A stretch of DNA of 64,000 nt from Candidatus Gottesmanbacteria bacterium (GTDB taxonomy: Bacteria > Patescibacteriota > Microgenomatia > UBA10105 > UBA927), in contig CAWBPL010000002.1 in assembly GCA_963790805.1 (NCBI GenBank), positions 704,696 to 768,695 on the forward strand, given 5' to 3'. Shown one piece after another: positions 13,376 to 24,600 of this stretch. The notes below the pieces were generated by a model that did not search any database, was not told where the DNA came from, and saw only the letters and a program-made list of their open reading frames with translations. Both the position numbers and the translations under genes were made by a program. Each line of letters starts with the position of its first letter. Positions within the stretch are counted from its first letter, which is position 1.

Positions 13376-16006
13376 GTGAGCAGTCTGCCTAACGATTATA
13401 CCAACTACCTAGCCTCGCAAGGGTTGAGCCGTGGTTCGATTAGAAACTACACGGCAGACATGTCTCGCTTCATGAAATGGTTCGAAACGACGACTGGTGA
13501 ATCATTTGCTCCTGAGAAGCTTCGAAGCTACCACATAGACCAATATCGTCAAAATCTGGAAAACGAACAGATTCCCGCATCCACCGCCCGTCGGTATATC
13601 GCAAGTTTAAAAACTTTTTTGAAATGGTTGGATCCTCATGGAAATATTTTTTCAATCAACGGTCCAACGCCACCCCCTACAGCGGTAAAAGCTTTTTCAT
13701 CGAATGAATCCTCTATAGATTTACTATCGGGTAACGAGGTATTAGCAGCGTATGCCGCATTTTTAGCAGCGCAGGGATTAAGTAAGAGTTCAGTACGAAA
13801 CTACATCGCCGATATGGTGCGTTTCGTCCGCTGGTTCGAGGCGTCAGAGTCTCTTAAGTTTTCTCCGGAGAAAATTCAATCCTATCACCTTGAACGGTAT
13901 CAAATGCACCTTCTGCGGGGAGGAGTGCCTGAGAGCACAATGAAGCGCTATATCGCGAGTCTTAAACAGTTTTTACGGTGGGTTCGTCCGCAGGTGCACC
14001 TGCAAGCGAAACCGCGACCGTTTGAGCTCACCCCTGCGCCGATATGGAAGGGAGTTCGTAAGCGTTTTGATCGTTTGCGCGGAGTAATTCCGCCGTTTCC
14101 AAGAAATTTTGTTAATCAGCTTGCGTTTCGTGCCGCAGTGATCGGCGTATTTTTTTTGATATCTATAGTAATAAACTTTGGGACTAACAGCGCGTCGCGA
14201 GCAATCGGCCTTATCCGAACAGTCAAGACGCATGTTGCTCAAAAAACGAACGAACCGGCCTTCGCTTTAGCCCAGCCAAAAGGTTCTGTGTTAGCCGGTG
14301 AGGTCGAGCGGGGGATTTTGGAAATTAACACCGGCGTCGGCATTTATGCCGAAGCTTCGGTTTCAGGACTTTTATCTGCATCAGGCGGTTTAACAACAAC
14401 ACAGGCGACTGTCTCACAAAGGCTCATTGTCGGCGCAGGCGGAGCATTTGTCGTTAACTCGGCAGGAAACATTGAATCGGCAACAGGCATCACCTCAAGC
14501 GGCGATATTACGTTTACCGGCCTTTCACCAGTGTCCGGCACCACGTATCAAAACGTCTGTATCGATGCAGACAATCGGCTCGTCACATGCGTTATCCCGA
14601 CGCCTCCGCCGACACCGACGCCATTTGCCACACCAACACCGCAGCCCACTGTAACGCCACTTCCGCCGTCGGTGCTGGGCGGCACAGGTTCAACAGGATT
14701 TACCGGTCCCACCGGTTCAACGGGTTCAACAGGTGCAACCGGCGAAATCGGTCCGACGGGTTCAACAGGGTCAACAGGAGAAATCGGACCAACCGGAAGC
14801 ACAGGTTCCACAGGGGCAACCGGAGATAATGGTCCAACGGGAAGTACGGGTTCCACGGGTGCAACGGGCGAAAATGGACCGACCGGAAGCACGGGTCCCA
14901 CTGGTGATTTGGGCCCGACCGGAAATACAGGAGCAACGGGCGAAATTGGTCCTACGGGAACTACTGGCTCTACCGGCTCAACAGGGGATAACGGTCCGAC
15001 AGGATCTACCGGTTCTACCGGTGCAACCGGTTCAACGGGTTCAACTGGTGCAACAGGTGAAAATGGCCCAACAGGTTCTACCGGTTCAACAGGCGCAACA
15101 GGCGATAATGGTCCTACTGGTTCTACCGGTTCAACCGGCGCAACAGGCGCAACAGGCATGACCGGAGGAACCGGTGTTACCGGTCCAACCGGTTCTACCG
15201 GCCCAACTGGCGAAACCGGTCCAACCGGTTCTACTGGTTCAACCGGCGCTTCTGGAGACAATGGCCCAACGGGTTCGACAGGTTCAACGGGTTCGACAGG
15301 TTCAACTGGTGCAACAGGTGAAGCAGGTCCGACCGGCGCAACCGGTGATTTTGGACCAACAGGCATGACCGGAGCAACGGGTATGACCGGTGCTACAGGG
15401 TCAACAGGAGACACCGGCCCAACGGGTTCTACCGGCGATTTTGGACCAACAGGATTTACCGGCGGAACAGGAGAACAGGGTGTAGGCGGACAACAGGGTC
15501 CGACAGGTTCAACCGGAGGAATTGGTCCAACAGGTGACACGGGAGCCACCGGTGCAACCGGTGAAAACGGTCCAACTGGAACTACAGGTGCTACTGGCCC
15601 AACCGGTGAAACCGGTCCTACAGGCGCTACTGGTTCAACGGGTGCTACCGGTCCAACCGGTTTTATTGGCCCAACCGGATCAACGGGTGCAACGGGTGGT
15701 ACAGGAGTGACAGGACCCACAGGTTCAACCGGTTCTACAGGTTCAACCGGTTCTACAGGTTCCACCGGCGGCACTGGCGTTACCGGTCCAACCGGTTCAA
15801 CCGGTGCTACGGGTCCAACGGGCGTTATTGGTCCAACAGGTACAACTGGTGCTACCGGCGGCACTGGTGTTACCGGTCCCACAGGTTCTACCGGTGCTAC
15901 CGGTCCAACCGGCGAAACCGGTCCAACAGGTTCTACTGGATCAACCGGTTCTACTGGCGAAAATGGTCCAACAGGGAGCACGGGTTCAACTGGATGCAAC
16001 CGGTGA
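13376..16006 (+). CDS. giant collagen-like protein, N-terminal segment (2x integrase-SAM-like domain, TM helix, PT linker, first ~440 triplets)
   Basis: 876-aa ORF. Two tandem segments match the phage-integrase N-terminal SAM-like/core-binding pattern ([27 protein letters not shown]...[14 protein letters not shown] and [27 protein letters not shown]...[14 protein letters not shown]). The TM helix is [17 protein letters not shown]. Collagen triplets run from 14678. Confidence 0.85.
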
Positions 16007-21636: not shown

Positions 21637-24600
21637 GGTCAGGCAGGTTCAACCGGTAGTACGGGATTTACTGGTCCCACCGGTGCAACGGGTACAACTG
21701 GTGGTACTGGCGTTACCGGTCCAACTGGCGCTACTGGGTCTACCGGTTTTACCGGTCCAACTGGCGCTACAGGTACAACCGGAGCTACGGGCGCTACCGG
21801 AGATAATGGTCCAACTGGTTCAACTGGTTCAACCGGAGGAACAGGCGTCACTGGTCCCACAGGTTCAACAGGTTCAACAGGAAGTACTGGATTCACCGGT
21901 CCTACCGGTTCCACGGGTTCGACAGGCGCAACGGGCACAACAGGCGGTACTGGTGTTACCGGCCCTACCGGTTCAACAGGTTCAACTGGAGGAACAGGAG
22001 TAACTGGTCCAACCGGATCAACTGGTTCTACCGGTTCTACTGGAGAGGTCGGCCCAACCGGTTCAACCGGTTCTACTGGTGGAACAGGCGCTGAAGGTCC
22101 AACAGGATCTACAGGTTCTACGGGTGGCACCGGCGTTGCTGGTCCTACCGGTTCAACAGGTTCAACCGGTTCTACCGGCAGCACCGGTGTTGCTGGACCA
22201 ACTGGAGCAACTGGGGCAACTGGTAGTACGGGCGCAACAGGCGCATTTGGTCCAACCGGATCAACAGGTTCCACCGGCGGTACCGGCGCAGTAGGCCCAA
22301 CGGGTTCAACTGGATCTACTGGAGGCACAGGAGCAGTAGGTCCAACAGGATCTACGGGTTCTACCGGTGGTACCGGCGTTGCTGGTCCAACCGGATCAAC
22401 TGGTTCTACCGGTTCTACTGGAGAGGTCGGTCCGACCGGTTCCACTGGTACAACCGGTTCAACCGGTGCTACCGGACAGGCTGGTCCTACGGGAGCTACG
22501 GGCACGACTGGAGCTACTGGTGGTACCGGTGCTATCGGACCCACGGGAGCTACCGGTACAACTGGTGGTACTGGTGCTTTTGGTCCAACCGGATCAACCG
22601 GATCAACAGGTTCCACCGGTTCAACCGGCGCGACAGGTTTTATCGGTCCAACAGGATCAACTGGTACTACAGGATCAACGGGAAGCAATGGTCCCACCGG
22701 CTCAACTGGTTCAACGGGTTCAACGGGAGTTATTGGTCCAACTGGTGCTACCGGCACAACTGGTGCTACAGGTGCAACAGGTCAAGCTGGTCCAACGGGT
22801 TCAACTGGATCTACGGGTTCTACAGGAGAGGTTGGCCCAACGGGCGCTACTGGTACAACCGGTTCAACCGGCGCAACCGGTGAACATGGTCCGACAGGTT
22901 CAACTGGATCTACGGGTTCTACTGGTACTATTGGTCCAACAGGTTCTACCGGTTCAACCGGCGCAACAGGCGCTGAAGGTCCAACCGGTTCAACCGGTTC
23001 AACGGGTGGCGTTGGTCCGACAGGTACAACTGGTACTACAGGAGGAACAGGAGTATTTGGTCCAACTGGTATGACCGGTACTACTGGTGGAACTGGTGTC
23101 TTTGGTCCCACCGGTTCAACCGGCACAACTGGCGCTACAGGCGCAACTGGTGGAAATGGTCCGACCGGAGAAACCGGTGCCACAGGATCTACGGGAGCGA
23201 CTGGCCAAACAGGTCCCACCGGCTCAACCGGTTCCACAGGTGGCACTGGCGCCGGAGGTCCAACTGGCTCTACCGGCTCAACCGGTTCAACAGGTGGTAC
23301 CGGTGCAGTAGGTCCCACGGGTTCGACAGGTTCAACCGGAGCGACCGGTGCAACTGGTCAAGCTGGTCCCACCGGTTCAACAGGTTCAACCGGTTCTACT
23401 GGTGCTACGGGTTCAGTTGGTCCAACCGGCGCCACCGGTACAACAGGATCCACGGGTGCAACAGGAGCAGTTGGTCCAACCGGTTCAACTGGTTCTACAG
23501 GATCTACCGGTTCAACCGGTGTTGAGGGTCCAACAGGTTCTACAGGATCTACCGGCGGAACGGGTCAAATTGGTCCAACCGGATCTACCGGATCAACGGG
23601 CGGCACTGGTGTTACGGGTCCGACTGGATCTACGGGATCTACTGGTCAATTTGGTCCCACCGGCTCAACCGGTTCCACAGGTTCAACGGGCGCTGGAGGT
23701 CCCACTGGTTCAACCGGTTCCACGGGATCCACCGGTGCAACAGGAGTTATTGGTCCAACGGGTTCCACTGGATCTACGGGGAGCACTGGCTTTATTGGTC
23801 CAACGGGTTCTACTGGATCTACGGGGAGCACTGGCTTTATTGGTCCAACCGGTTCAACAGGTTCAACAGGAAGCACTGGTGATTATGGTCCAACCGGTGC
23901 GACGGGTACGACCGGTTCAACCGGTGCGACGGGTACAGCAGGTCCAACCGGTTCAACTGGCGTTGGTGGTCCAACCGGCATGACTGGAGCAACCGGTACA
24001 GCTGGTCCCACCGGTGCTACTGGTTTGGCTGGTCCAACCGGTATGACAGGTGCAACAGGTGTCAATGGTCCCACCGGTGCAACCGGTATGGGTGGTCCAA
24101 CTGGTTCAACAGGTTCAACAGGATCTACTGGTGAAGCCGGTCCAACAGGGTCAACTGGAAGTACGGGTTCTACCGGAGCAACTGGTGTTGCGGGTCCAAC
24201 GGGTTCAACCGGTGTTGGTGGTCCAACCGGTATGACGGGCTCAACTGGTGGCACCGGTGTTAATGGTCCAACTGGCGCAACCGGTATGGGTGGACCAACC
24301 GGCATGACGGGTTCCACAGGGGCAAGCGGTGATTTTGGTCCCACTGGTGCAACAGGCGCAACTGGCATGACCGGCGCTACAGGACAGGGTGGTCCAACAG
24401 GTTCAACCGGTATGGGTGGACCAACCGGTATGACGGGTTCAACCGGAGGTACCGGTGTTAATGGTCCAACAGGTTCAACCGGTATGGGTGGGCCAACAGG
24501 TTCAACAGGTACAACAGGATCTACTGGTCAAGCTGGTCCAACCGGATCAACCGGAAGTACCGGTTCAACAGGCGCAACTGGCGTCAATGGTCCAACAGGT

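Follow-up and report, generated by a model that had tools for sequence, protein, structure and literature searches.

A giant collagen-like gene in a Gottesmanbacteria contig

We analyzed a stretch of 64,000 nt from Candidatus Gottesmanbacteria bacterium (NCBI GenBank assembly GCA_963790805.1, contig CAWBPL010000002.1, positions 704,696 to 768,695 of the forward strand; hereafter, the window), which contains a giant, 17.6-kb collagen-like gene whose Gly-X-Thr repeat switches reading frame at 31 points. The gene is located on the plus strand at 13376–31000, from a GTG start codon to a TAG stop codon at 30998–31000, as delimited from the list of open reading frames (ORFs) and by repair and translation of the sequence. 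As recorded, it is divided into several separate ORFs; 32 single-base edits over this region turn it into one ORF of 5,880 codons that has no internal stop codon and encodes about 1,720 uninterrupted G-X-Y triplets. The same GTG is the beginning of the gene call on L089, one of the independently assembled Logan contigs described below.

All parts of the gene described here are given on the plus strand. The N-terminal part encodes two Phage_int_SAM-like domains (13394–13984; residues 7–85 and 129–203), which matched the Pfam families PF02899 and PF13495 with E-values of 4e-19 and 7e-15, respectively. They are followed by a hydrophobic, transmembrane-like stretch (14126–14185), as read from the translation, and then by a linker of Pro and Thr that precedes the repeat. 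The combination of a SAM-like N-terminus with collagen repeats was also found in two other Gottesmanbacteria proteins (P0112 and P0127) and is thus a trait of the family. The collagen-like repeat itself, delimited by phase tracking, extends from 14681 to 30169 and consists of about 1,720 (Gly-X-Y) triplets, in which Y is Thr in about 90% of the units. The repeat is uninterrupted, with Gly at the first position of all 1,691 complete in-phase units, as expected for the Pfam Collagen family (PF01391), the match to which falls on the last triplets.

The repeat leads into a C-terminal globular domain of 276 residues (30170–30997), for which homologues with up to 64% identity were found. An AlphaFold monomer model built from 33 aligned sequences predicts a beta-sandwich, with a predicted local distance difference test (pLDDT) score above 85 over residues ~140–276. 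A Foldseek comparison of the domain with the PDB yielded only weak matches (template modeling scores of 0.3–0.6), namely to the carbohydrate-binding modules (CBMs) CBM61 and CBM11 and to the C-terminal parts of phage tail fibers and tailspikes, and neither a BclA nor a C1q chain was among the 50 PDB matches listed. This weak resemblance, which is not a family assignment, would be compatible with a binding head at the distal end of a long stalk.

Frame switches in the repeat and in the neighboring gene

The phase of the nine-base unit GG(N)-NNN-AC(N) was followed with a 9-state Viterbi model from 14680 to 30150. With the finer setting, 31 phase changes were detected, of which 29 are clustered at 15994–21639 and two are isolated, at 25468 and 29563. 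Altogether, there are seven +1 events (at 15994, 16004, 16444, 16606, 16651, 16788, and 17791), twenty-three −1 events, and one −2 event, the latter at 21240, where it resolves into two separate one-base gaps. All seven +1 events, the −2 event, and twenty-one of the −1 events belong to the cluster. The counts given in the earlier note, which had been obtained by hand (31 switches, 29 of them in a 5.6-kb block, 7 insertions, and 24 deletions, one of 2 nt), were thus reproduced by the model, including the net change of −18 nt over the whole repeat. Because of this net change, the first and the last segments share the frame of the GTG start codon at 13376; on its own, such an agreement has a chance of 1/3. 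The isolated deletions, each of 1 nt, were placed locally at 25468 (TCT-CAGG) and at 29563–29566 (GAC-GGC); in a relative, contig L081, the homologous stretch at the end of the collagen repeat is read in one frame, a comparison made at the level of the stretch.

The clustering is highly significant: the probability that at least 29 of 31 events fall within 36.5% of the repeat is 4e-11. Per kb, there are 5.1 switches in the block, 0.20 in the remaining collagen repeat, and 0.04 in the flanks, and the indel level of 0.51% in the block is about a hundred-fold above that in the rest of the window.

When aligned to paralogous units that are in frame, every switch appears as a single-base gap, and an exhaustive local search pinned each event to 1–9 nt. 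About nine deletions read AC-GG, with one base lost at the Thr/Gly junction, and about eleven are located within a seven-base interval that extends from the Gly codon to the first A of ACN; most of these eleven fit a change from CAAC to CAC. The remaining events are located in short runs of C, T, or G or are insertions outside of runs, such as the extra base in GGT-A-TCGAC at 16643–16647, which recurs at 16788–16792 in a paralogous 137-nt unit. A deterministic error in this context was considered and rejected, given that a very similar context at 19049 is intact. Likewise, a recurring spacing of 71 nt between breaks, seen in the first segmentation, disappeared in the finer one. No slippery motif is common to the 31 sites, which differ in context (CA-C, AC-GG, C runs, GGT-A-TCG) and include changes in both directions, downstream structures not having been searched.

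The coding signal persists across the breaks. In the broken block, all 603 complete in-phase units start with GG (Gly), 600 of the 603 carry ACN (Thr) at the Y position, and none contains a stop codon; over the whole repeat, none of the 1,691 complete units has a broken Gly codon or a stop codon in the tracked frame. If substitutions and indels had accumulated at a ratio of 1:1, 6.4 broken Gly codons would be expected to accompany the 29 indels of the block, and the probability of finding none is 0.0016. In bacterial mutation spectra, the ratio of substitutions to indels is closer to 5–10:1; at 5:1, the probability of finding no broken Gly drops to 1e-14. The three forward frames are largely open, as exemplified by the ORFs at 15804–20909 and 20653–26010. 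However, the recorded ORF that begins at the start codon ends at a TGA at 16004–16006, directly past the first two insertions, so that the conserved C-terminal domain could not be made in the recorded frame.

The broken region largely coincides with the most self-similar block of the gene (15700–21600), the only part with kb-long self-alignments (76–81% identity). Within this block, Tandem Repeats Finder and alignment revealed a near-identical higher-order repeat at 20414–21146, which appears to have a period of 287 nt, but has a true period of 288 nt, with copies that are 91–99% identical. The switches at 20528 and 20776 fall within this repeat, and the one at 21126 lies just inside its end. 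The shares of non-unique 15-, 19-, and 31-mers are 59%, 36%, and 10.6% in the block, compared to about 40%, 19%, and 3% in the remaining repeat, and the number of breaks per 300 nt correlates with the content of repeated 15-mers (Spearman rho 0.43, p = 0.0014). The earlier note had placed the breaks exactly where the units are most nearly identical, and this held in part. The block is indeed the most self-similar one, but the identity of 150-nt tiles to their best other match is 0.80–0.89, except at 20.41–21.15 kb, where it reaches 0.91–0.99, and the densest run of breaks (16319–16823) lies in a stretch in which all 31-mers are unique, with the caveat that k-mers shared between units are lost wherever an indel falls.

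The only two indels found outside of the collagen-like gene are a compensating pair in the neighboring gene, which encodes an M23-peptidase surface protein (31043–35041, plus strand; Pfam PF01551 and homologues). This gene stays open throughout, but 33 of its codons are out of frame. Comparison with homologues places a +1 event at 31647–31650, where CCC is recorded as CCCC in AAGCCCCGGA, with the extra C in AAGCCCCGG, and a −1 event at 31746–31752, where one base is missing in TTTTCCCGGG and the frame is restored 100 nt downstream of the first event. The recorded frame reads RKIYRKSISKQRTYLHAVIYVGCFGSQYEQIRIF; the homologue in L030 is matched instead by the +1 frame, GKYTAKVFQNNELISTQSFTWGVLAVNTNKSVF. 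Upon repair (removal of the C in AAGCCCCGG and addition of a base in TTTTCCCGGG), the 110-residue segment scored higher against all 56 of the 56 homologues, in one example with 117 instead of 70 bits, in agreement with the compensating pair proposed in the earlier note. Both indels are located at CC[CG]GG sites, but the suggestion of a methylated, CCGG-like motif did not hold for the collagen block: 14 of the 29 break intervals touch CCGG, compared to 14.5 ± 2.7 expected for random intervals, and a CCGG or methylation link was rejected there.

Apart from these sites, the flanks of the collagen-like gene are clean. In a blastx search of the window against the ORFs from 83 related loci, no subject outside of the collagen-like gene was distributed over different frames, no split gene was detected in about 14 kb of flank covered by homology, and suspicious pairs of adjacent ORFs in the window contained no split domains. 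The flanks hold more than 800 runs of 4–8 identical bases, yet the flanking genes show no frameshift. Moreover, two Logan contigs that were independently assembled from the public run ERR11594402 are 100% identical to the window: L089, which covers positions 6991–15148, and L088, which covers positions 33911–36222. The end of L089 falls precisely on the first 30-mer with a further copy in the giant gene, as a k = 31 graph predicts. The errors are thus local; in the parts covered by the two contigs, the record agrees with accurate reads, which therefore exist for this organism.

Other searches for an independent assembly of the locus returned no further copy. A scan of the genome contigs with LepA yielded only relatives, the LepA of the source genome being at most 74% identical to those of metagenome-assembled genomes (MAGs) of Gottesmanbacteria, Microgenomates, and Patescibacteria; homologue searches gave nothing above 64% identity for the C-terminal domain or 43% for M23; and two scans of metagenome contigs, for which the C-terminal domain and a degenerate pattern from the interval between the M23 indels served as queries, gave no match. 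The matches of a repaired G-X-T query, used to find read-through fragments, were swamped by long foreign collagen-like proteins. Exact look-ups of guessed products (the collagen ORFs, the M23 starts at 31043, 31046, and 31094, the minus-strand ORFs, and the C-terminal ORF starts at 29432, 29963, 30098, 30116, and 30185) returned no record, including those meant to reach a Logan contig predicted from 29961 onward that would span the M23 pair, and a literature search for the run accession ERR11594402 found nothing.

In relatives that have the same C-terminal domain and the M23 neighbor, the collagen repeat is held in one frame. In L007, which is from an Illumina MAG, the repeat and the C-terminal domain are encoded in a single frame of 1,412 residues; in L081, where the order of the collagen-like gene, M23, and LepA is the same as in the window, a single frame of at least 1,196 residues runs to the end of the contig; L084 encodes a single-frame repeat protein of about 1,740 residues; and in L085 the single frame is broken only by a run of N. 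Taken together, the homologous collagen repeats of these four relatives span about 10 kb, in which no frame switch occurs. A different case is L087, in which a giant repeat protein with the same C-terminal domain, but not collagen-like, is shattered by many frameshifts at 450–10050. The name of this contig (ctg309260_2x_l), read as that of a long-read contig with 2x coverage, suggests an example of shattering driven by errors.

Probable consensus error and rival explanations

Judged from the sequence, the 31 switches are very probably single-base consensus errors of the assembly and not a property of the organism. They change the sequence length by single bases (one −2 event besides 30 events of ±1), they cluster in the 5.6-kb block with the highest self-similarity, they are not accompanied by substitution damage, and their removal yields a perfect ORF. 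The enrichment in repeated sequence is evident, though the repeats are only moderately similar. The preference expressed in the earlier note for consensus or polishing errors over gene decay or frame tolerance is thus upheld, through several lines of evidence that are indirect but independent (indels without substitutions, the repair, the relatives, and the M23 pair), whereas its more specific claims on the most identical units and on a methylated motif proved weaker.

In the organism itself, the region most probably constitutes a single, intact gene of about 5,880 codons. Its product would have two SAM-like domains in the cytoplasm, an anchor in the membrane, a collagen-like part of about 1,720 Gly-X-Thr triplets, and, at the C-terminus, a head formed by a beta-sandwich. 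The block would have escaped the correction with accurate reads that cleaned the remaining contig and would thereby have kept a long-read consensus at draft level. Either the repeat block of a long-read draft may have been left unpolished, or a gap may have been bridged with a long-read consensus. A long-read origin of the record is plausible, given the 1,222,826-bp source contig.

Errors of this type have been described. The errors left in long-read assemblies are predominantly indels in homopolymers, which lead to frameshifts, and after polishing with short reads, most of the remaining errors are located in repeats (PMC8812927). In the same study, simulated unpolished long-read assemblies had identities of 99.57–99.94% (PMC8812927). 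The block, with about 0.5% indels, is close to the lowest of these values. The switches resemble the residual errors of long-read and hybrid assemblies (Wick & Holt, Polypolish, PMC8812927) in that they are single-base indels, mostly deletions, in or beside short runs, cause frameshifts, and are concentrated in repeats of an otherwise clean contig, at a local level typical of an unpolished draft. There are also differences: in the collagen block, the repeats are only 76–89% alike instead of near-identical copies, and runs of 2–3 bases were struck, while many runs of 4–8 bases in the flanks are correct.

Several observations weigh against consensus error. Accurate reads of the organism clearly exist in the data set, and yet the indels remained. 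Most 150-nt tiles of the block, with best-other identities of 0.80–0.89, should be mappable by ordinary short reads, so that the sharp limits at 15994 and 21636 are left unexplained. All insertions fall within the first 1.8 kb of the cluster, a spatial separation from the deletions (Fisher p = 0.007). The GGT-A-TCGAC insertion is common to two paralogous 137-nt units that are 88% identical, and it could have been inherited. Finally, the M23 indels form a compensating pair, as predicted by selection or a real double mutation, but not by random error, and their sites are unexpectedly close: among the 36 CC[CG]GG sites in the 46-kb flank, only 4 of the 630 site pairs are that close. The displaced M23 codons, however, still encode the conserved peptide, so any real double mutation would be very recent.

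A first alternative retains the artefact, but has it provoked by real variation within the population in the number or arrangement of repeats, caused by recombination or gene conversion, such that reads of different variants piled onto one path gave a consensus that is off by one. This proposal refines consensus error rather than competing with it. The restriction of kb-long self-alignments to the block and the 288-nt unit, with its identity of 91–99%, would provide the substrate, the switches at 20528 and 20776 are located at the edges of identical tracts, and the spatial separation of insertions and deletions suggests different local pile-ups. Breaks at the ends of long exact repeats, as hinted at by these two switches, were examined as a general rule and rejected, given that there is no enrichment across all switches (Mann-Whitney p = 0.36). 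We consider this particular route unlikely.

Alternatively, the indels could be real and the gene a recently inactivated pseudogene that has just started to decay. Like bacterial pseudogenes with multiple frameshifts, the recorded gene contains many of them, and its first ORF is truncated at 16006. In addition, the accuracy of the contig elsewhere might extend to the block, and the insertion common to two paralogous units could be inherited. Unlike such pseudogenes, however, the gene shows no sign of relaxed constraint: there are no substitutions at constrained positions (all 1,691 Gly codons are unbroken, and 600 of the 603 block units retain Thr), no stop codons in the tracked frame, and the damage is perfectly repairable. 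Even at a substitution:indel ratio of 1:1, the absence of broken Gly codons has a probability of at most 0.0016. Neutral decay does not predict that indels are confined to one block comprising about a third of the repeat (P = 4e-11), a streamlined genome of about 1.2 Mb is unlikely to keep 15 kb of perfect dead repeat, and the genes of the relatives are intact. An inactivated gene is thus a very unlikely explanation.

More generally, it is slightly less probable still that the indels are truly present in the DNA of the population, with a Gly-X-Thr periodicity that is perfect despite 31 frame changes. If so, either the block would be subject to a mutational process that produces only indels (slippage or gene conversion without substitutions), or expression would be independent of a single frame, and this genome would offer a further, selected example in the compensating M23 pair. 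The least probable proposal, which we regard as extremely improbable, is that real indels are tolerated, yielding a mosaic of G-X-T, PVQ-like, and RSN-like segments, or are decoded by repeated frame shifts of the ribosome or RNA polymerase: the largely open forward frames and the net shift of 0 modulo 3 would allow it, but the frame of the start codon meets the TGA at 16004–16006, so that a frame change is needed at once, the 31 sites lack a shared slippery motif, the agreement of the first and last frames has the one-in-three chance mentioned above, and Gly and Thr are kept in the tracked frame on either side of every switch, not in any single reading frame.

The repaired protein and further features of the window

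Once repaired, the gene joins the collagen-like surface proteins of bacteria as a new member that is noteworthy but not surprising. It resembles the exosporium proteins BclA and BclB of Bacillus in its G-X-T triplets, the match to Pfam Collagen, and the C-terminal beta-sandwich, and BclB-related proteins appear among the matches of the repeat. Unlike BclA, which has tens to a few hundred triplets, the protein contains about 1,720 triplets, it carries the N-terminal pair of SAM-like domains and a membrane anchor, it is encoded in a Gottesmanbacteria genome, that is, in the Candidate Phyla Radiation (CPR), and its C-terminal fold weakly resembles CBMs and the domains at the tips of tail fibers. 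The rise of collagen is 0.286 nm per residue, and the stalk was calculated from this value to be about 1.5 micrometers long if straight, which is several times the size of a CPR cell. An ultra-small epibiotic bacterium could plausibly use such a protein as an attachment fiber.

In its recorded form, this gene, the largest of a small genome, would be annotated either as a pseudogene or as several consecutive fragments, and 33 residues of the neighboring peptidase are wrong. If the breaks are treated as errors, one protein of about 5,880 residues is recovered. Since collagen-like repeats require Gly at every third codon, phase tracking is a very sensitive detector of local consensus errors, and in the present case it indicates that a seemingly finished contig can harbor a repeat block whose error level exceeds that of the remaining sequence about 100-fold.

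Intact collagen-like genes are also prone to misannotation. The G-X-T frame is nearly devoid of start codons; in the ORF at 25140–30101, for example, the first in-frame start is the ATG at 27309. With almost no starts in this frame and six open frames, gene callers place spurious ORFs on the minus strand and call only the C-terminal domain. The regions concerned are 25140–30101 in the window, 5927–10001 in L084, and 7018–10001 in L085. Short gene calls on the contigs of the relatives were therefore rejected as evidence of frameshifts, the genes being intact but mis-called.

Other features of the window were noted in passing. The stretch directly upstream of the giant gene (11200–13300) has a low G+C content (0.36–0.42) and contains no ORF of more than 100 residues, save for an ATP synthase epsilon-like gene at 11702–11950. 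The ATP synthase beta subunit, encoded at 9446–11146, comprises 567 residues, with an N-terminal extension and a long, low-complexity C-terminal tail rich in Pro, Ser, and Ala. LepA (37606–39879) has 758 residues, about 150 more than usual; the extra sequence is located between the EF-Tu-like domains and EFG_C, and the relatives are similar in length. At 56553–56739, there are two divergent tRNA genes that are 43 nt apart.

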